DNA from: an uncultured Clostridium sp.
GTDB taxonomy: Bacteria; Bacillota; Clostridia; TANB77; CAG-508
Assembly: GCA_948468685.1 (NCBI GenBank)
Contig: CAOKJC010000002.1
Span: forward strand, 1 to 33,428
Direction of reading: 5' to 3'
Length of the DNA: 33,428 nt
The translations under genes and the position numbers were made by a program. The notes under the pieces are model-generated. The model saw nothing but the letters and a program-made list of their open reading frames with translations. It did no database searches and had not been told where the DNA came from. Within the stretch, counting starts at the first letter, position 1. Each line of letters opens with the position of its first letter. Positions 1,903-33,080 of the stretch are shown here, piece by piece.

Positions 1903-2472
1903 ATGGAAAAGTTCAAAAGAGCTAATAGAGGTATAACATTAGTTGCACTAATTATTACAATAATAATATTGTTGATATTGGCAGGAATATCAATATCAAG
2001 TTTAACAGGAAGTGGATTATTTAGGAAGGCAGAAGATGCAAAAACACAATATGGAGAAGCTGAAAATAGAGAAAACTCAATATTAGGAGAATATGAAAAT
2101 TACATTAATAATTTAGGAAATAACTTATCTGATGTAGATAAAATTGTACATTTCTCTATAGATGGAGTAGAGTACTCATGTGAAAAGGGAAAAAGATGGA
2201 AAGATTTTGTTGATTATGAAGAGTATGGGGGAAATGAAGTAGTAGCTTATTTAGACGCATCACATTTTGGTGGTGAAATTGATGAAAATCAAAAAATATA
2301 TTGGATAGATTGGATGACTTTTGAAGGTGGTGTAGTAAGTATGGATGCTTATTTTGTTAAATTAGACGGGGAATATATTTACTCAAATTCAGAAATTGTT
2401 TCTGGAAAGTATATTATATCTGATGAAGTTACTTCAATTCATAATTATGGAAATTGTTATATAAAATTTTAA
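1903..2472 (+). CDS. pilin-like protein (prepilin-type N-terminal signal/hydrophobic helix) with a unique C-terminal domain
   Basis: GGAG RBS. The N-terminus MEKFKRANRG|ITLVALIITIIILLILAGISI matches the class III (prepilin) signal pattern K/R-G-[FI]-T-L-[IV]-x-L, but has Ala rather than Glu at +5. The N-terminal ~70 aa are paralogous to the 10815..12002 protein. Confidence 0.7.
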   Translation: MEKFKRANRGITLVALIITIIILLILAGISISSLTGSGLFRKAEDAKTQYGEAENRENSILGEYENYINNLGNNLSDVDKIVHFSIDGVEYSCEKGKRWKDFVDYEEYGGNEVVAYLDASHFGGEIDENQKIYWIDWMTFEGGVVSMDAYFVKLDGEYIYSNSEIVSGKYIISDEVTSIHNYGNCYIKF

Positions 2473-10535: not shown

Positions 10536-10814
10536 TACTTATATTGTCTTTATTTTTATCGAAATTTGCAAAAAGTCTTGAAAAAACAAAAAAGTTATGA
10601 GATACTTTAGAAGTAAAATTATTATATTTTTGCAAATAAGAACTTTGAAAAAAGAATAATCCATAAAATAATATTTAAGTTTTTATAAAGTATATATTTA
10701 TTTATAAATGATAAAAACTTAAAAATATTATAAAAAATAAGTATATTTATTTGTAAAAATATAAATAATAAAAGAAAAAATAGAAATAAGGAACAAAGGA
10801 GGAAAAATTATAAA

Positions 10815-12002
10815 ATGAAAAAGCAAAACAAAGGTATAACACTTGTAGCATTAGTAATTACAATTATCATATTATTAATTTTAGCGGGAATCTCAATAAG
10901 TGCATTAACAGGAAGTGGATTATTCCAAAAGGCAGGAGATGCCAAAAATAGTTATGAAGAAGCAGAAAGAAGAGAAAATTCAATATTAGGAGAATATGAA
11001 AACTATATTGATAATTTAGGAAATGGTGGAAATGCAGGAAATTTACCATCAACTGAAGAAACAACACCATATATGCCAGATGAAAAAAGTAAAATAATAG
11101 AGAATTCAGATTTAGAAACAGGATTAGTAGTAGCAGATAAAAATAATAATGAATGGGTATGGATAGTAGTGCCAAAATCAGTAACAGCAAGTGCAACAAC
11201 AGATTTAGAAATAGAAAATGCATTACAAACATATGCAACAGATTATAGAAGTTCTTGGACAGATGAATGGTATGAAGGATGTGGATTAACAGAAGCACAA
11301 TATAATGGAAATAAAAGTAAAATGTTGCAAAGTATAAAAGCAAATGGAGGATTTTGGATAAGTAGATATGAAGCAGGAATAGAAGGAAGTGTGCAAAATC
11401 CATCTTTAGCAAGAACAGAGCCAGGAGAATTAACAGAAACATCACCAAAAGCAGTAAGTAAGCCAGACCATATACCATATAATATGGTAACATGTAGTCA
11501 AGCACAAAATCTAGCAAGTCAAATGAGTCCAGATACAACAAAAACAAGTAGTTTATTATTTGGAATACAATGGGATTTAGTGTGTAAGTACCTAGAGGGA
11601 AAAGACGGATTAACAACAGCAGATATAAATGAAGATAGTTCAAGTTGGGGAAATTATAGTAATAATTCATTAAATATAACAAGTGCAAAAGCTATGGGAG
11701 CAGAATTCAATACATCAACATATCAACTAGGAGAGTGGCAAAATGTTACTGAGAAACCAGCAAATAAACTAATTCTATTAACAACAGGAGCATCAATAGG
11801 AACTAAGAAGATGAATATATATAATTTTGCAAGTAATGAAGCAGAATGTACATTAGAAAAGGCGACCGACAGCTACAATCCATGTTGCAATAGGGGAGGC
11901 TCTTACTTTAGTACAGGTTCCGTCAGTCCAGCTTCTAGCCGCATCATCAATGATCCTTCTATCAGTAACGTCCTCATTGGTTTACGCGTTTCACTTTATT
12001 AA
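10815..12002 (+). CDS. pilin-like N-terminus fused to an FGE-sulfatase / C-type-lectin-fold domain (candidate DGR target protein)
   Basis: AAGGAGG RBS. N-terminus MKKQNKG|ITLVALVITIIILLILAGISI. C-terminal domain motifs of the formylglycine-generating-enzyme (DUF323) fold: GFWISRYEAG, PYNMVTCSQAQNLASQM, LLFGIQWDLVCKYL, NIYNFASNEAECT, RGGSY...IGLRV. Confidence 0.8.
   Translation: MKKQNKGITLVALVITIIILLILAGISISALTGSGLFQKAGDAKNSYEEAERRENSILGEYENYIDNLGNGGNAGNLPSTEETTPYMPDEKSKIIENSDLETGLVVADKNNNEWVWIVVPKSVTASATTDLEIENALQTYATDYRSSWTDEWYEGCGLTEAQYNGNKSKMLQSIKANGGFWISRYEAGIEGSVQNPSLARTEPGELTETSPKAVSKPDHIPYNMVTCSQAQNLASQMSPDTTKTSSLLFGIQWDLVCKYLEGKDGLTTADINEDSSSWGNYSNNSLNITSAKAMGAEFNTSTYQLGEWQNVTEKPANKLILLTTGASIGTKKMNIYNFASNEAECTLEKATDSYNPCCNRGGSYFSTGSVSPASSRIINDPSISNVLIGLRVSLY
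11862..12002 (+). other. DGR variable-region-like 3' segment of the pilin-FGE gene
   Basis: Abrupt composition and codon shift. 18 of the last 46 sense codons end in C (acc gac agc tac tgc ggc tac tcc gtc agc cgc atc atc atc aac gtc ctc cgc), whereas upstream codons are almost all A/T-ending. The peptide RGGSYFSTGSVSPASSRIINDPSISNVLIGLRVSLY fits the RGGSW(N)n..R(N)nP(N)n.IGFRV layout of FGE-type DGR VRs. Confidence 0.5.
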
Positions 12003-12214
12003 AGTAGGACTGAACTCTAAAGCCGTGACTATAACATTATAAAAAAATTAGTTTTAAAAGTACAGATTATAAAAAATTTATAGTCAAAATAGATTAATTA
12101 ATATAAAAACTATTGTAAAAACAGTAAATATATGTTAATATAATAAAGTAAAACAAAAATGAAACAATTAAAAAATCCGATTAAAAAGCAAAGTATATAT
12201 ATATTTCAAAATTT

Positions 12215-12505
12215 TACAGAGAGAATATCCAAGGTTGAGAGATATTTAAATAAAATATATAGAAATTTCACTTTTTAGGACTTCTTTTGAATAAAGAAAT
12301 ACAACTTCACAATAGTTCAGTTGTATAAGTCATTTGTAAAAAGCAAAGCTTTAACAACTGACTTAAGTAGGAAGAAGCGGTTGAACCGTTAAAACTATAA
12401 TGAGGTTAATTAAAAATAATTAATAAAATTAGGTGGTACCACGGAATAAATCCATTTCGTCCTATAACTATATAAAAAATATAGTAGGATGAAATGGATT
12501 TTTTT
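12215..12505 (+). promoter_or_regulatory. T-box riboswitch leader (tRNA-Phe expected) controlling pheST
   Basis: Stem I AGAGA box with a GGTTGAGA distal loop (12218..12245). Conserved T-box sequence AGGTGGTACCACG at 12431..12443. Terminator arms AAATCCATTTCGTCCT (12448..12463) / AGGATGAAATGGATTT (12486..12501) followed by T runs. I could not assign the specifier codon by eye. Confidence 0.85.
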
Positions 12506-12513
12506 GTGAAAGT

Positions 12514-12642
12514 GAGACATTTGGGACAGTACAAATATGTCTTACAAATTTAGTCGAATAATGTAAAAAATACACTTATAAAAGAAAGTCGACAAAAAAT
12601 AACAAAAATAATGAGACAAATTTGGACTGTCCCAAGTGTCTC
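12514..12642. repeat. 129-bp MITE-like inverted-repeat element, copy 1 (between the T-box terminator and the pheS RBS)
   Basis: Terminal inverted repeats GAGACATTTGGGACAGTACAAAT / ATTTGGACTGTCCCAAGTGTCTC (21 of 23 complementary). The 3' ~45 nt are identical to copy 2. The same-length copy is at 13707..13835. Confidence 0.8.
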
Positions 12643-12658
12643 AAGGAAGGAAATTATA

Positions 12659-13708
12659 ATGAAAGAACAAATTTCAAAAATCAAAGAAACTTCAGTAGAA
12701 GAAATAAAAAAAGCTGAAGACTTAAAAGAACTAAATGAAATAAAAGTAAAATACTTAGGAAAAAAAGGAGAACTAACAGCAGTATTAAGAGGAATGGGAG
12801 GACTATCACCAGAAGAAAGACCAATAATAGGAAGCTTAGTAAATGAAGTAAGAGATGAACTAGAAAAAATAATACAAGAAAAAGAAGGAAAATTCCAAGC
12901 AGAAGAATTAAATAAGAAGTTAGAAGCAGAAAAAATAGATATAACACTACCAAGCACTAAAATGAAAAGAGGAAGCTTGCATCCAGTAAATAGAATAATA
13001 GAAGATATAGAAGACTTATTTGTATCTATGGGATATGATGTAGTAACAGGACCAGAATTAGAAAATGACGAATACAATTTTGAAAGATTAAATCTTCCAA
13101 AAGGACATCCAGCAAGAGACATGCAAGACAGCTTCTTTATTAGTGATAAGTATTTATTAAGAACACAAACATCAGCAGTTCAAGCAAGAACAATGATGGC
13201 AAATGAAGAAAAAACACCAATAAGAATAATAACAACTGGAAAAACATATAGAAGAGAAGATGATGCAACACATTCACATCAATTTAATCAAATAGAAGGA
13301 TTAGTAATAGACAAAAAAGAAAGAAATGTATCATTAGCAGATTTAAAAGGAACATTAGAAGTATTTGTTAGAAAAATAATAGGAGCAAATTTAGAATTAA
13401 GATTTAGACCAAGTTATTTCCCATTTACAGAACCATCTTATGAAGTAGATGTAACATGCTTCAAATGTGGAGGAAAAGGATGTAATCTATGTAAACAAAC
13501 AGGTTGGATAGAAGTATTAGGAGCAGGGATTGTACATCCAAATGTTTTAAAAATGAATGGATATGACCCAGAAGAATTTGGTGGATTTGCATTTGGTACA
13601 GGAATAGACAGATTAGCTATGTTTAGATATGGAATTACAGATATGAGATATTTATATGCTAATGATGTGAGATTCCTATCTCAATTTGATAGAAAAGATG
13701 AAGAATGA
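12659..13708 (+). CDS. pheS: phenylalanine--tRNA ligase alpha subunit
   Basis: Start at [10 protein letters not shown] after AAGGAAGGA. The ORF-track start at 12611 reads through the repeat element. Class II motifs: [41 protein letters not shown]. Confidence 0.97.
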
Positions 13709-13835
13709 GACAAGTGGGACAGTACAAATGTGTCTCACAAATATGTCAAAATGTGTCGAAAAGTAATAAAAATAATATAATTCGACAAGAAACAACAAAA
13801 ATAATGAGACAAATTTGGACTGTCCCAAGTGTCTC
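13707..13835. repeat. 129-bp MITE-like inverted-repeat element, copy 2 (pheS-pheT spacer; overlaps the pheS TGA stop)
   Basis: GAGACAAGTGGGACAGTACAAATGTGTCTC ... GAGACAAATTTGGACTGTCCCAAGTGTCTC, followed by the AAGGGAGGA RBS of pheT. Confidence 0.8.
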
Positions 13836-13850
13836 AAGGGAGGATAAAAA

Positions 13851-16223
13851 ATGAAATTAAGTTTAAATTTTGTAAAAGACTATGTTGATATAGATGAAAA
13901 TATAAATGTGCACGAGTTAGCAGAAGCAATGACAAAAGCAGGAAATGAATATGACTCAGCAGAGAAGTTAATAAATGCAACAAAATTAGTAATAGGAGAA
14001 ATTAAAGAATGTGAGATGCATCCAGATTCAGACCACTTACATCTATGTAAAGTAGATATTGGAAGTGAAGTTTTAGATATAGTATGTGGTGCACCAAATG
14101 CTAGAAAAGGAATAAAAGTTATAGTAGCTCAAGTTGGAGCTGAATTACCAGGAGATTTTAAAATTAAAAAAGGCACAATTAGAGGTCAAGAGTCAAATGG
14201 CATGCTATGTGCTTTATATGAAATAGGAATAGACAAAAAATTCTTATCAGAAGCAGATAAAAATGGAATACATGAATTACCAACTGACGCTCCAATAGGA
14301 GAAGATCCAATAAAATATATGAAATTAGATGATAGTGTTGTTGATTTTGAATTAACAGCAAATAGAGGAGACTTATTAAGTATTTTAGGGATGGCTTATG
14401 AATTAGGAGCAATTTATGATAAAAAAGTAAAAACAGTAGAAATTTCATACAAAGAAAATGGAGAAGATATAAACAAAGAATTTTCAATAGGAATAGAAAC
14501 AGAAAATTGCAAACTATTCTTGGCAAGAAAAGCTAAAAATGTAATAATAAAAGAAAGTCCAGAATTTATAAAAAATAGATTAATAGCTTCAGGAATAAGA
14601 CCTATTAATAATGTAGTAGATATAAGTAACTATGTAATGTTAGAATTAGGTCAACCATTACACTTCTATGATGCTGATAATTTAGGAAATAAGATAGTTG
14701 TAAGACAAGCAGAAAATGCTGAAAAATTGACAACACTTGACAATATAGAAAGAACATTAACAGAAAATGATATAGTTATTGCAGATGAGAAAAAAGCTAT
14801 TGGATTAGCAGGAGTTATGGGTGGACTAGATACAGAAGTAGAAGAAACAACTAAAAACATCACAATTGAAGCTGCTATATTTGACTCAGTAAAAGTAAGA
14901 ATGACATCAAACAAAATCTTAAGAAGTGAAGCAAGTAATAGATTTGAAAAAGGCTTAGACCCAGCAAGAACATATATGGCAATGGAAAGAGCATGTACAT
15001 TATTACAAAAATATGCAGATGCAGAAATAGTTACAGGAATTGTTAAATATGATGTAACAGACAATAAAGAAAAAGTAATTGAAATAACATATCAAGAAAT
15101 AAATGATGTGTTAGGAACAAATATATCAAAAGAAGATATAATAGACGTATTTAGAAAATTAGATTTTAAAACAGAAGCAAAAGAAAGCTCAGTAATTGTA
15201 ACAGTACCAACAAGAAGAATAGACATATCAATTAGAGCAGATTTAATAGAAGAAGTTGGAAGAATTTATGGAGTTGACAACATACAAGGAAAACTACCAG
15301 TAGTTCCAATGAGAATGGGACACTTAGATAGAACAACAAGAAAAATAAGAGCTAAGATGTCAAATATGGGACTAAATGAAACATTATCATATATTTTAAT
15401 AAATGATAAAGATGTTCATAAATTCACAACAGATGAATTTGAAGAAGTAAAATTGCTAGACCCAATAACAGAAGAAAGAAATACTTTAAGATACAGTATG
15501 ATACCTTCATTATATAAAATTTATGAATACAATAAAGCGAGAGAGAATAAAGATGTTTGTTTATTTGAAATAGGAAAAGGTTTCTGGAAGAGAAACGGAG
15601 AATATGGTGAAAATCAAAAAATATGTGTATTGATGTCAGGAGAATATTATACAGGAATAGGTCATAGTAAAAATGTAGATTTTTATGATATCAAAGGAGT
15701 TACAGAGGAATTATTAGATTATTTAGGATATGAAAATAGATATAGCTTTGTAATGCCAAAGAAAATGATATCAGAATTCCATCCAGGTCAAGTAGCAGAA
15801 ATTTCAGTAAATAATGATATTGTAGGTAGAGTAGGAAGAATACATCCATCAATTGAAAAAGAAGCGGTTTATGTAATGGAAATAAATTTAGATAAACTAT
15901 TAGAAAAAAGAGTTGGAAAAATGAAATTTAAAGAGATTTCAAAATTCCCAGTTGTTAAAAAAGATATAGCAGTTCTAGTAAGTAAAAATATGACATCAAA
16001 AGATGTTGAAACTTTAATTAAGAAAAAAGCTGGTAAGTTACTATTAGATATTAAAGTATTTGATGTGTATGAAGGTAAAAATATTGATGAAAATATGAGA
16101 AGTATTGCTTATTCTTTAACATTTGGTACTCAAGATAGAACTTTGAATGATGATGAAATTAATGGTATTTTAGATGGAATTATTAAGGATTTAGAGAATA
16201 AAGGGATTAAGATTAGAAAATAA
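13851..16223 (+). CDS. pheT: phenylalanine--tRNA ligase beta subunit
   Basis: 790 aa. N-terminal tRNA-binding domain (HPDSDHLHLCKVDIG), B3/4 and B5 domains, and a C-terminal FDX-ACB-like domain (FPVVKKDIAVLV). Confidence 0.97.
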   Translation: MKLSLNFVKDYVDIDENINVHELAEAMTKAGNEYDSAEKLINATKLVIGEIKECEMHPDSDHLHLCKVDIGSEVLDIVCGAPNARKGIKVIVAQVGAELPGDFKIKKGTIRGQESNGMLCALYEIGIDKKFLSEADKNGIHELPTDAPIGEDPIKYMKLDDSVVDFELTANRGDLLSILGMAYELGAIYDKKVKTVEISYKENGEDINKEFSIGIETENCKLFLARKAKNVIIKESPEFIKNRLIASGIRPINNVVDISNYVMLELGQPLHFYDADNLGNKIVVRQAENAEKLTTLDNIERTLTENDIVIADEKKAIGLAGVMGGLDTEVEETTKNITIEAAIFDSVKVRMTSNKILRSEASNRFEKGLDPARTYMAMERACTLLQKYADAEIVTGIVKYDVTDNKEKVIEITYQEINDVLGTNISKEDIIDVFRKLDFKTEAKESSVIVTVPTRRIDISIRADLIEEVGRIYGVDNIQGKLPVVPMRMGHLDRTTRKIRAKMSNMGLNETLSYILINDKDVHKFTTDEFEEVKLLDPITEERNTLRYSMIPSLYKIYEYNKARENKDVCLFEIGKGFWKRNGEYGENQKICVLMSGEYYTGIGHSKNVDFYDIKGVTEELLDYLGYENRYSFVMPKKMISEFHPGQVAEISVNNDIVGRVGRIHPSIEKEAVYVMEINLDKLLEKRVGKMKFKEISKFPVVKKDIAVLVSKNMTSKDVETLIKKKAGKLLLDIKVFDVYEGKNIDENMRSIAYSLTFGTQDRTLNDDEINGILDGIIKDLENKGIKIRK

Positions 16224-30412: not shown

Positions 30413-30460
30413 GAATTGGTACAAATTCTTGAAAATTTATTTTTTAGAATTTGTCAATTC
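30413..30460. promoter_or_regulatory. pair of near-palindromic sites upstream of the Rep-like gene (operator/iteron candidates)
   Basis: GAATTGGTACAAATTC (30413..30428) and GAATTTGTCAATTC (30447..30460) in inverted orientation. Confidence 0.35.
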
Positions 30461-30522
30461 GTATTTCAAAAGAGAAACCCTGTATTTTTTATGCAAAATT
30501 ACTGCTAGAATTGGAGTGGTAT

Positions 30523-31008
30523 ATGAAAGAAAATCAAGATAATGTTGGATATTATTCTATAATTCCAGCAACAATTTTATACAATAAAGAACTAAAAGCA
30601 AATGAAAAATTATTATATGCAATTATAACATCACTTGCTTGTAAAGAAGGATATTGTTTTGCAACAAATAAATATTTAGCAGAAAAATTAGGTGTAAATC
30701 CTAAAACAATTTCAAATTGGATTTCAGATTTAAGCAAAAGAAATTTTATAATTGTTGAAGTAATTAGAAATGAGAATAAGCAAATTATTCAAAGAAAAAT
30801 TTATATAAATGATGTACCCTATCCATTAAATATTGGATACCAGTATCAATCAAAAAATGGACAGGCTATCCATCAAAAAGTGGAAGATAATAGTATAAGA
30901 AATAATATTAAAACTAATAAAAAGGGTTATTCAAATTATACAAATCAAAGAGAATATTCAGAAGAATTTTTGAATAGTTTGTATGCAAATTCACAATACA
31001 TAAATTAA
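30523..31008 (+). CDS. helix-turn-helix replication-initiator-like protein (HTH_36 / DnaD-type)
   Basis: Start at MKENQDNVGYYSIIPATILYNKELKANEKLLYAIITSLACKEGYCFATNKYLAEKLGVNPKTISNWISDLSKRNFI, the typical wHTH of plasmid/phage Rep-organizer proteins. GGAGTGG RBS. Confidence 0.7.
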   Translation: MKENQDNVGYYSIIPATILYNKELKANEKLLYAIITSLACKEGYCFATNKYLAEKLGVNPKTISNWISDLSKRNFIIVEVIRNENKQIIQRKIYINDVPYPLNIGYQYQSKNGQAIHQKVEDNSIRNNIKTNKKGYSNYTNQREYSEEFLNSLYANSQYIN

Positions 31009-31084
31009 AAATTTTGATGAAAAAATCAAACGAAGACTTATAAAAAATGAATAAAAAATTCTCCCAGCGGGTTAAAAAGGTATT

Positions 31085-31168
31085 AGGAGATTTTCTCCTA
31101 AACGGCAATTTGTGGTCCATTGGACCAAGCCGGCGAATATTGGGCATTAAAAAATGCCACAATATTCG
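31085..31168. promoter_or_regulatory. oriT-like cluster of inverted repeats upstream of mobC
   Basis: AGGAGA/TCTCCT (31085..31099), TGGTCCA-T-TGGACCA (31113..31127), and a nested hairpin CGAATATT-GGCATT-AAAA-AATGCC-AATATTCG (31134..31168). Locally GC-rich. Confidence 0.4.
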
Positions 31169-31263
31169 GATCAAAAATCTTTTGCTAAAAATATCAAATT
31201 TTGATTTGCTAGTATTGATATTTTATAACAAAGAAGTTTTAGTATATAAAGGAGTGAGTTAAA

Positions 31264-31677
31264 ATGGAATTAAATTCAGATAATAGAACAGAAATGATAA
31301 AAGCAAGAGTATCTGAAGAAGAAAAGATTTTAATAAAAGCAAAAGCAGAATATTATGGATATAAACAATTATCTAAATATATAAGAGATTCTGCAGTTTA
31401 TGAAAAGGTAACTAATATTGACTTAGTAGGAAAAAATGAAATATTAAAAGCATATTCAGATAATACACAGATATTAAAAGAAATGAATAAAAGTATAAAA
31501 CATATTGCGATATTTGCTACACAAATTGATAAATACGAAAGAGAAGAACTAAAATTTAAAATGCTTGAGATTTTAAAGAATCAAAAAGAAATGATAAAGT
31601 TAATTGATAAAAAATTAGATTTAGATATATGGCAAGAAGTAAATCATAGAAAATTAAATAAAAGGGCTGACAAATAA
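31264..31677 (+). CDS. mobC: MobC-like mobilization (relaxosome accessory, ribbon-helix-helix) protein
   Basis: RTEMIKARVSEEEKILIKAKAEYYGYKQLSKYIRDSAV matches the MobC signature (R..x..vRls.eE...l...A...G.s.S.yiR). Confidence 0.7.
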   Translation: MELNSDNRTEMIKARVSEEEKILIKAKAEYYGYKQLSKYIRDSAVYEKVTNIDLVGKNEILKAYSDNTQILKEMNKSIKHIAIFATQIDKYEREELKFKMLEILKNQKEMIKLIDKKLDLDIWQEVNHRKLNKRADK

Positions 31678-31745
31678 AATTGACAAATTACCAAAATAGA
31701 TACATAATGTTATTATATAATATGTAAAATTAGAAGGTGAAAGTA

Positions 31746-32384
31746 ATGAACATTTCTAAATTAGTTCAAGAGTGTATCGAAAATTATCAAGATACTGAGC
31801 CTATATTTATAGAAGATGTAAAAAAATATATCACAAAAAAATGTGATAAAAAAGATAATGTTATAAAGAATGTAAGTATAATATTAAATAAGTTAAAAAG
31901 AAAAGGAATTATAAAATCTGCATATAGAGGAATTTATTATAAACCTGGAAGGTGTGTTTTTGGAGAAACTGGATTAGACTATACAAGATTGATAAAATTA
32001 AAATATTTAAAAGATCGAGAAGGCAATATAAAAGGATATATAACAGGGGCTAAATTATTTAATTGGATAGGATTTATAACATTAGTTCCTAATGTAATGG
32101 AAATAGTAACAAATGAATGTAAATATTATAAAAAATATGATGATAAATTAAGAACATACATTATAAAACCTAAAATGCAAATAACAAACGAAAATCATCA
32201 ATATTTACAATTTTTAGATATTTTAGAAAATAAAGATAATATCCATATTGAAGTAGAGAAAGAAAATAAAATCTTATATAATATCATAAGAGAATGTAAT
32301 TTAAATTTTGAAAAATTAATAAAATATGCTAAAGAAACAAATAATAAAAAAGCATTAGTTAAACTATTAATATTAAAAAAGTGA
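31746..32384 (+). CDS. AbiEi-like / wHTH protein of unknown function
   Basis: Start at MNISKL after GAAGGTGA. LNKLKRKGIIKSAYRGIYYKP and GYITGAKLFNWIGFITLVPNVMEIVTNE resemble AbiEi-type antitoxin N-terminal and middle regions. No AbiEii partner follows. Confidence 0.4.
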   Translation: MNISKLVQECIENYQDTEPIFIEDVKKYITKKCDKKDNVIKNVSIILNKLKRKGIIKSAYRGIYYKPGRCVFGETGLDYTRLIKLKYLKDREGNIKGYITGAKLFNWIGFITLVPNVMEIVTNECKYYKKYDDKLRTYIIKPKMQITNENHQYLQFLDILENKDNIHIEVEKENKILYNIIRECNLNFEKLIKYAKETNNKKALVKLLILKK

Positions 32385-32464
32385 AAATTATTTATTAAAA
32401 CAATTGATTTTGAGATAAAATAATGATAAAATATTGATAATAAATGTAAAGGAGAGTGTGAGCT

Positions 32465-32776
32465 ATGATTAATATTAGACCAGTGTCAGATTTAAGAAAT
32501 AAATATCCAGAAATAGAGGACTTAGTTTTAAAAGAAGATGAAGCAGTTTATTTGACCAAAAATGGATATGGTTCAATGGTAGTTTTAAGTTTAGAGAAAT
32601 ATGCAGAAATGCTAAAAAGTTTAGATAAAGAAAAAGCTTTAGAGGCAAGATTTGGAGTCATTGATATTGATAAAGCTCTAGAAGAAGCAGAGGAAGAAGC
32701 TAATAATCCTAACACTAAATGCCATTCTCATGAAGAAATGAAACAAATGGCAAGGAGGATAATTGATGGTAAATAA
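32465..32776 (+). CDS. type II antitoxin, Phd/YefM family
   Basis: MINIRPVSDLRNKYPEIEDLVLKEDEAVYLTKNGYGSMVVLSLEKYAEM is the canonical Phd/YefM N-terminal fold. Overlaps the toxin gene by 14 nt. Confidence 0.8.
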   Translation: MINIRPVSDLRNKYPEIEDLVLKEDEAVYLTKNGYGSMVVLSLEKYAEMLKSLDKEKALEARFGVIDIDKALEEAEEEANNPNTKCHSHEEMKQMARRIIDGK

Positions 32777-33080
32777 AAAATATGAAATAGAATATCTTCC
32801 AACATTTATTTCACAATTTAATAATATTTTGTATTACATTACATATGAACTTAAAAATAAAATAGCAGCAGATAATTTTTATAATGAAGTAGTGAAACAA
32901 ATTGAGATAAGAAGCGAAGCTCCAGAAGCGTACGAAGTTTTTAAAACAATTAAAAATGGAGAAGTAAAATATTATAAAATAAATGTAAAAAATTATACAA
33001 TATTTTATGTTGTAAAAAACAATATAATGGAAATAAGAAGAATATATTATAGTCAAAGAAATTTTGATAATTTAATATAA
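32763..33080 (+). CDS. type II toxin, RelE/ParE family
   Basis: 105 aa. YEIEYLPTF...APEAYEVF...YYKINVKNYTIFYVVKNNIMEIRRIYYSQRNFDNL follows the RelE/ParE pattern. Translationally coupled to the antitoxin. Confidence 0.8.
   Translation: MMVNKKYEIEYLPTFISQFNNILYYITYELKNKIAADNFYNEVVKQIEIRSEAPEAYEVFKTIKNGEVKYYKINVKNYTIFYVVKNNIMEIRRIYYSQRNFDNLI

Follow-up and report, generated by a model that had tools for sequence, protein, structure and literature searches.

A stretch of 33,428 nt from an uncultured Clostridium sp. (contig CAOKJC010000002.1, positions 1 to 33,428 of the forward strand; hereafter the window) carries a gene for a 395-amino-acid (aa) protein whose 3' end, 11863–11996, was almost certainly written by a diversity-generating retroelement (DGR). 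A template repeat (TR) and a DGR-type reverse transcriptase (RT), which the original prediction made from the letters of the window had expected to lie outside it, were indeed found together with the accessory protein Avd beside the orthologous gene in sister strains. We consider it probable that the variable region (VR) of the window is an orphan of such a DGR, left behind by the loss of the retroelement cassette and presumably frozen in its last written state.

The window represents an AT-rich bacterial chromosome (27% GC) encoding SMC, a P-type ATPase, PheST, EF-P, trigger factor, ClpP, ClpX and Maf. The original prediction called a VR at 11862–12002 on the basis of an abrupt switch of codon usage and a depletion of adenine in the last 46 codons of the target gene, and both features were confirmed. 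Among codons 1–349, the third base was A in 210 and C in 10, whereas the last 46 codons ended in C (18), T (20), A (6) or G (2), the difference being significant for both C-ending and A-ending codons (Fisher p 3e-12 and 7e-10, respectively). The adenine content dropped from 45.4% to 22.5% in the last 46 codons, and the GC content calculated for 100-nt windows peaked at 0.48 at 11850–11949 in comparison with ~0.3 elsewhere in the gene. Every other 46-codon stretch in the 17 plus-strand open reading frames (ORFs) of the window contained at most 10 C-ending codons. The next-highest count (10 of 46) was found in the 22956–23933 gene, encoding a 325-aa predicted membrane protein without a Pfam match and containing three in-frame CGG codons. 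The ORF of the target gene with its translation and the C-terminal peptide had been described correctly, and the boundaries of the VR were right to one base, the segment homologous to the TR being 11863–11996.

No repeat of the 11841–12030 sequence was detected elsewhere in the window (blastn, word size 7). The comparison also covered contigs of the same species, among them those carrying a 92% orthologue of the target gene; the cassette-bearing contigs are referred to as sister strains and labelled L001, L007, L096 and so on. In L001, a 134-nt repeat of the window segment was located 3' of the RT gene (12693–12826), with the sequence running CGACCAACAGCAACAATCC...ATTGGTTTACGCGTTTCACTC, and this repeat is the TR. 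The alignment of 11863–11996 with the L001 TR was gapless over 134 nt and contained 20 mismatches, of which 18 fell on TR adenines (Fisher p 8.6e-8), as had been anticipated for a DGR-written copy. The own VR of L001 (L001 11049–11182) differed from the same TR at 21 positions, including 19 adenines. In the reading frame of the target, 16 of the 44 aligned TR codons were AAC or AAT (Asn).

The VR ended 3 nt 5' of the stop codon of the target gene, with ATTGGTTTACGCGTTTCAC as its 3' end. Position 11996 was occupied by T in the VR and by C in the TR, and the two sequences diverged from there on. Judging from its sequence, the 11976–11996 segment is a candidate for an element resembling the initiation of mutagenic homing (IMH) site. 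Among species-representative genomes, the IMH 20-mer was found only in the sister-strain TR, apart from one exact 20/21-mer match in a metagenome-assembled genome (MAG) of Gottesmanbacteria (L011). This match was rejected as most likely fortuitous; by our own estimate, about one chance match of this length is presumably to be expected in 596 Gb.

In the closest relatives of the target protein (92–98% identical), nearly all differences fell at fixed positions of the last ~46 residues. The window and L001 differed at 29 of 134 positions of the VR and 25 of 1048 positions of the gene body, and no substitution was observed in the post-VR element up to 12070 (Fisher p 3e-15). The column entropy across 117 family members reached 3.06 bits at the TR-Asn codons, compared with 1.13 bits at other VR positions and 1.06 bits in the rest of the head domain. 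Hypervariability restricted to the VR codons in related strains, proposed in the original prediction, was thus observed. Five VR alleles were distinguished in the available contigs, with differences from the TR mainly at adenines. The allele of the window, SYFSTGSVSPASSRIINDPSISNVL, recurred unchanged in L009 and L096, and these three contigs stem from at least two studies. The protein with VR allele 2 (P0002) was identical on 13 contigs from many samples. Two scans of Joint Genome Institute (JGI) metagenome contigs, one with the window VR allele and one with the post-VR element, gave no matches. Two short cassette-bearing contigs (L012 and L194) start just 3' of the VR, and these assembly breaks may reflect mixed VR alleles within the respective samples. 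Both contigs share a second breakpoint, corresponding to L001 12977, beyond which they differ both from L001 and from one another.

In the sister strains, the target gene with its VR was followed on the same strand by an MSL-like ORF, avd, the RT gene and the TR, and the contigs with the 92% orthologue had the same upstream synteny as the window (a 189-aa pilin-like gene, SMC, MntP, ATPase and the target). The MSL/Avd-RT-TR module was ~1.7 kb long in L001. The MSL-like ORF preceding avd encoded 150–155 aa and showed a faint to weak match to MutS_I. In L007, a 155-aa MSL-like ORF was accompanied by a full 124-aa Avd, which matched NF033474 with E 4.7e-22 and 78.3 bits (cut-off 80). The Avd profile match was reduced to the C-terminal 44 positions in most strains, and in most contigs a 502-bp deletion joined ~33 N-terminal residues of MSL to ~51 C-terminal residues of Avd, resulting in an 84-aa product. 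The intact RT (P0122, 339 aa) contained IGNYTSQ, the DGR form of motif 4, and this motif was removed by an in-frame 28-aa deletion from the common RT variant (P0121, 311 aa) present on at least 22 contigs. These variants would form a decay series within the species, from intact MSL and Avd (L007), through the 502-bp MSL/Avd fusion and the RT without motif 4, to the lack of the cassette in the window. Both cassette deletions were in frame and located between short direct repeats (LNEI...LNEI in the RT and a ~57-nt overlap for the 502-bp deletion), at 12207/12196 (RT) and 11527–11583 (MSL/Avd) in L001. They fit replication slippage and could have more than one origin.

A sibling DGR was identified at L013 7216–11301 (ERZ14650996 NODE_213) in the context of an integrative and conjugative element (ICE), with TraG/TrwB and DnaB_2. 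Its MSL (150 aa), Avd (124 aa) and RT (P0123, 88% identical) were all intact, and it targeted a 577-aa Big_2 protein. The L013 TR was nearly identical to the chromosomal TR in the flanks and the 5' two-thirds, and the post-VR element was shared. This TR was rejected as the donor of the window VR, as its 3' third and the IMH region differ.

None of the cassette genes is present in the window, where tblastn with the RT, Avd and MSL proteins of the sister strains gave only E values above 1. The RT, Avd, MSL and TR were likewise not detected in the 8 kb further to the left on a separate 52-kb contig (ERZ14863986 NODE_538; L009/L190), which contained the same 12070/12071 junction with different contig ends and 1–3 mismatches. 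The DNA 3' of 12071 comprised the pheS promoter region, a T-box leader and a hairpin repeat and matched the regions 5' of pheS in related species, with homology beginning at 12105–12171. The presence of the T-box leader at 12171–12467 shows that the sequence past the breakpoint is the native pheS upstream region and not the remains of a cassette. At gathering thresholds, Rfam recognised nothing in the window, and the T-box leader surfaced at an E-value threshold. Because L096, in which the VR was identical (134/134) and the gene body differed by one mismatch, still has the genes for Avd (84 aa) and RT behind its target, the loss of the cassette appears to be recent.

The sequence between the VR and the breakpoint was also kept 3' of the 577-aa Big_2 target (L013) and, in part, 3' of paralogues in another genome. 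The search for a hairpin or cruciform 3' of the VR, such as that of phage BPP-1, was negative, the predicted DNA fold being no more stable than that of shuffled sequences (z-score +1.35). The 11997–12070 element is regarded as a candidate DGR cis element for target recognition.

These data show that the VR was written by mutagenic retrohoming from the TR found next to the orthologous gene in sister strains. Adenines of this AAC/AAT-rich TR were copied as random bases, and 16 Asn-templated codons were thereby recoded on the face of the C-type-lectin head (FGE type) that binds the ligand. For the loss of the cassette, the following history is proposed. The ancestor would have had the order target, cassette, pheST, which fits the match between the DNA past the cassette in L012, a strain with the intact RT, and the terminator region ~700 nt 5' of pheS in the related species L015. 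One deletion of ~2 kb probably took out the cassette in the lineage of the window, and the VR would have been left as an orphan, frozen in its last written state. A recent turnover of the VR in this strain is made less likely by the finding of one and the same allele in the window, L009 and L096.

Several observations weigh against this history. The match linking the L012 tail with pheS comprises 52 nt. The target, with or without the cassette, was also found in other contexts, 3' of rplS and a helix-turn-helix (HTH) gene in L094 and L095 and 3' of a LysM gene in L096. The sample from which L094 comes (ERZ14864636) also holds a window-like strain, whose contig L192 has 99.84% identity with the window, and the two were covered to a similar depth (5.6x and 5.2x). 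The near-clonal L001 and L179 differ at 13 VR positions, including 11 TR adenines, and share a doubly defective cassette with the truncated Avd and the RT without motif 4. Their VRs are identical at positions 63–112, and the differences suggest partial rewriting or recombination after the damage of the cassette; damaged cassettes may be complemented in trans by a sibling DGR such as that of L013, or VRs may be recombined between strains. Finally, the two paralogues inspected on a 1.47-Mb contig of another genome were surrounded by housekeeping genes, neither RT nor Avd being encoded within 10 kb, and remote targeting may be usual for this target family. The rplS/HTH context of L094 was considered as the ancestral pheS neighbour, with a reciprocal rearrangement, and rejected, as no such synteny was found in ten related species. 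In the species-representative genome of the sister strain, pheS was not among the best 80 matches.

The strongest alternative, which we regard as possible though rather less likely, is that the VR remains open to rewriting as a remote target, with a cassette or a copy of the same TR elsewhere in the genome (e.g., an L094-like locus with rplS, HTH, a second target copy, Avd and RT) acting in trans through the IMH-like end and the post-VR element. Distant targets are known for DGRs (Wu et al. 2018, PMC5758913), and both the VR 3' end and the 74-nt post-VR element of the window are fully intact. The target copy with Avd in L094, the coexistence of L094 with L192 in one sample, the paralogues without an adjacent RT, which are common in the 1.47-Mb genome, and the DGR-type VR differences between L001 and L179 all fit this possibility, as does the ICE-borne sibling DGR with intact MSL, Avd and RT and near-identical TR flanks in the same population. 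However, the allele common to the window, L009 and L096 shows no sign of turnover, the closest cassette-bearing relatives (L096 and L095) have the truncated 84-aa Avd fusion, the L013 TR is no donor, being unlike the VR over its 3' third, and among species-representative genomes the IMH 20-mer is confined to the adjacent TR. The original prediction described the gene as a possibly remote DGR target. That it is a DGR target was upheld, but remoteness is not the best reading, since the cassette is normally adjacent and was, in our view, removed here.

It is very unlikely that the 12070/12071 junction is an assembly artefact, in which the post-VR element was misjoined to the pheS upstream region and the cassette is really present. 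The assemblies are metagenomic and based on short reads, contigs of related strains tend to break at or beside the VR (as in L012 and L194), and the target occurs in several contexts in low-coverage contigs, such as L096 at 1.7x. Against this, the junction recurs in the separate 52-kb contig, the post-VR element was not found to share any repeat with the pheS upstream region by which an assembler might have been misled, and the L012 tail independently ties the cassette to sequence resembling the pheS upstream region. The idea that the segment is not DGR-derived at all but represents GC-richer foreign DNA brought in by recombination, or an oddity of codon usage in a conserved motif, which the locally raised GC content and non-native codon usage might have favoured, is refuted by the collinear TR with mismatches confined to adenines and has a negligible chance in view of the adjacent Avd and DGR-type RT in the sister strains and the hypervariability at exactly the Asn-templated codons. 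The coordinates of the features discussed are collected in Table 1.

Table 1. Features of the target gene and its surroundings in the window.
Feature	Coordinates	Strand	Description
DGR target gene, 395 aa	10815..12002	+	Prepilin-like leader with hydrophobic helix, long helix, Gly/Asn-rich linker, FGE-type C-type-lectin head, C-terminal VR
Prepilin-like N-terminus	10815..10910	+	MKKQNKG followed by ITLVALVITIIILLILAGISISAL; basic leader ending in Gly, then hydrophobic helix
Head domain, residues 90–395	11082..11999	+	Predicted FGE-subtype C-type-lectin fold (AF2 model and Foldseek)
VR	11863..11996	+	134 nt collinear with the sister-strain TR; A-derived substitutions at ~11868–11974
Invariant VR 3' end, candidate IMH-like segment	11976..11996	+	ATTGGTTTACGCGTTTCACT, common to VRs and TRs in the alignment, then T in the VR
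Post-VR element, candidate cis element	11997..12070	+	Final sense codon, stop codon and a further 68 nt; core AGTAGGACTGAACTCTAAAGCCGTGACTATA; no differences in any sister strain as far as 12070
Breakpoint	12070..12071		Homology to cassette-bearing strains stops 68 nt past the stop codon; MSL/Avd-RT-TR module absent
pheST T-box leader	12171..12467	+	Rfam RF00230, 81.3 bits, E 7e-18; gathering score 93
Paralogous 189-aa gene	1903..2472	+	Promoter-proximal DNA and first ~70 residues as in the target; different small C-terminal domain
Prepilin peptidase (A24) gene	19041..19794	+	Interrupted by a 1-nt insertion just 5' of the GFGD catalytic motif, giving ORFs of 167 and 87 aa

The fold of the target protein was evaluated by structure prediction. 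The AF2 model of residues 90–395 alone, built with a more diverse alignment (m7fe6f395a862), had a predicted local distance difference test score (pLDDT) of 96.8 and a predicted template modelling score (pTM) of 0.94. Foldseek comparison of this model with the PDB placed TvpA (2y3c) at the top (2.8e-4), followed by TaqVP (5vf4) and then PvdO, FGE, SUMF2, EgtB and Mtd, in agreement with the FGE/C-type-lectin fold suggested in the original prediction. A full-length AF2 model (pLDDT 69.6, below 50 in the VR) matched no PDB fold and was superseded by the domain-only model, and a single-sequence search against the PDB gave weak pilin matches only. Pfam FGE-sulfatase matched 50 of the 117 relatives but not the window protein itself at E<=0.01, and the family profile matched SUMF2 (1y4j) on the C-terminal motif with E 0.034.

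The target protein has ~7000 database homologues, and a search of clusters at 50% identity yielded 16,870 with E<=1e-3 and 377 with E<=1e-30. The family showed a tight linkage to one RT clade in MAGs of gut Clostridia. In species-representative genomes of these bacteria, 45 of 80 related RT loci had a gene of the target family just upstream. At least five paralogues were encoded on the single 1.47-Mb contig mentioned above (ERZ28756056 contig_9157; L187 and L188). At L188, several family genes occur in a row, some of them with a CTAAAG..GTGA.TATA post-VR motif. Giant proteins with 10–17 tandem head-domain matches were also found (P0241 of 5309 aa, P0244 of 6477 aa and P0246 of 3424 aa).

The target protein is most likely a surface-displayed binding protein, because its hydrophobic, prepilin-like N-terminal helix is followed by a second long helix and a flexible linker. 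The AF2 model contains a helix at residues 6–32, and the second long helix and a Gly/Asn-rich linker of ~15 residues lie between the N-terminal helix and the head. Gly7 is nearly invariant in the 117 relatives. The mature position +5 is occupied not by Glu but by Ala12, which is nearly invariant across the family. Pfam N_methyl matched the target protein with E 0.0016 and 18.3 bits, under the cut-off of 21.2, and 44 of the 117 relatives at E<=0.01, whereas the NCBIfam pilin models gave no match to the target protein. The family profile matched geopilin and type IV pilins with E values of 0.005–0.6 (0.005 for geopilin). Of the "pilin-anchored" architecture claimed originally, the basic leader ending in Gly and the hydrophobic helix stand, but with the lack of Glu at +5, the subthreshold N_methyl score and the absence of NCBIfam pilin matches the resemblance is one of motifs only. 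A prepilin-like anchor is a fair description of what the sequence offers, and the target protein is at most a putative pilin.

The 189-aa paralogue was 67% identical to the target over residues 1–89, with a mean column identity of 81% in the DNA alignment. The 1825–2121 and 10733–11024 segments, covering the promoter-proximal region and the first ~70 codons, were ~77% identical at the DNA level. The shared leader-helix-stalk module with different heads is a possible substrate for recombination.

The original prediction also pointed to a prepilin peptidase gene about 7 kb downstream. Such a gene exists, with a Peptidase_A24 Pfam match at 19041–19544 (30.5 bits), but it is frameshifted in this strain. 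In five related species it forms a single 250-aa ORF, and the insertion was mapped to GGG-CGG-A at 19503–19509. No PilB/PilC-type genes were found among the window ORFs scanned, and ComEC is encoded 6.5–8.5 kb to the left of the left edge of the window, on the same contig. An adjacent HAD/YqeG-like phosphatase gene (18532–18918), a single 172-aa ORF in five related species, is likewise split by a 1-nt insertion, at 18901–18907. Both frameshifts occur in GGR-CGG-A, and skipping of the C restores the frame. In-frame CGG codons are present five times among 7763 codons of the window, two of them being these frameshift sites. The two genes could be true pseudogenes, the shifts could have an artefactual cause in common, or the ribosome could shift by +1 at a CGG codon that is hungry or unassigned.

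Two further features of the neighbourhood were recorded. Copies of a ~150-nt hairpin repeat, 81% identical, are located at 12513–12664 (between the T-box terminator and pheS) and 13706–13856 (5' of pheT), and the repeat also occurs at L094 1580–1734. It gave spurious microRNA-precursor matches on both strands and may be a dispersed element of the repetitive extragenic palindrome (REP) or miniature inverted-repeat transposable element (MITE) kind. The right end of the window contains a series of small ORFs (30451–33080), including HTH_36, a weak DUF6577 match and others without matches, which may be the start of a mobile element.

TvpA and TaqVP, the best structural matches to the head, resemble the target in having the VR at the extreme C-terminus, with the scaffold residues RGG, R and G.R kept and the Asn-templated positions varied, and they are cellular, not phage, DGR targets, as here. 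The sequence identity to the head is only 10–13%, with modest template modelling scores (TM-scores, 0.28–0.44). Unlike them, the target has a prepilin-like N-terminus, an extra N-terminal subdomain (residues ~90–170) and the accessory genes MSL and Avd. TvpA is reportedly a lipoprotein, and the Treponema DGR is said to use an HRDC accessory gene. Among type IV minor pilins and pseudopilins, those without Glu5 are of the GspK/PilX-like kind. The target resembles them in the short basic leader ending in Gly, the hydrophobic helix, the lack of Glu at +5 and the large C-terminal domain, and differs in the ~15-residue Gly/Asn linker between the helices and the head, which is unusual for pilins.

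The order of target, MSL-like ORF, Avd, RT and TR in the sister strains matches the architecture of MSL-containing DGRs, classified as architecture D with the Legionella DGR as an example, while cassettes of the avd-RT-TR order form architecture B2 (Wu et al. 2018, PMC5758913). Unlike in those systems, most strains described here carry the 502-bp MSL/Avd fusion and the RT without motif 4, and the window has no cassette. Membrane-anchored FGE-like DGR targets were recorded by Roux et al. 2021 (PMC8144416), including a 371-aa entry with a transmembrane helix at 7–24 and a 5HHA_A (PvdO-like) match at 110–370. As here, an N-terminal transmembrane helix precedes an FGE/PvdO-like C-type-lectin domain with the VR, but that work describes no prepilin-type leader and does not discuss the Clostridia family. 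A GspG-type pilin domain is listed among the rare VR-holding domains (PMC11661182). In the literature on DGRs with prepilins, pseudopilins or type IV pilins, no description of DGR targets with prepilin-type leaders in Firmicutes was found. The suggestion that the architecture is not a described DGR target class in Firmicutes therefore holds to the extent that no paper describing the class was found, and is weakened by the membrane-anchored FGE-like entries and the GspG-type domain already on record.

In Bacteroides, DGRs diversify type V pilus adhesins (bioRxiv 10.1101/2024.11.15.621889). The concept, in which gut bacteria use a DGR to vary the adhesive portion of a protein associated with a pilus, is common to both cases, the target described here being at most a putative pilus protein. 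The Bacteroides adhesins belong to another pilus system (that of Bacteroidota) and an unrelated protein family, and the paper mentions neither type IV pilins nor Firmicutes.

DGRs, FGE-type variable proteins, MSL and Avd accessories, the avd-RT-TR order and remote targets are already described. The points of interest in the present case are the orphaned VR with a decay series within one species and the prepilin-like leader. The VR was recognisable from codon usage alone with the retroelement absent; surveys demanding an RT near a TR/VR pair will miss orphan targets of this kind. Such targets may be common, because many paralogues of the family have no RT nearby. More speculatively, and with a low probability, the family could be a large undescribed class of DGR-diversified, type IV pilin-like adhesins of the Glu5-less minor-pilin type, built of a prepilin-like leader, a helical stalk, a linker and an FGE-type lectin head, with the variable lectin at the tip of a filament or pseudopilus and with chromosomal copies kept variable by sibling DGRs, some on conjugative elements, which complement damaged cassettes in trans. 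Variants of such a class would number in the thousands in AT-rich Clostridia of the gut, and a single genome would often encode several paralogues. If assembly by type IV pilus machinery proves true, Gram-positive bacteria would have in this family a counterpart of the type V pilus adhesins that DGRs diversify in Bacteroides.

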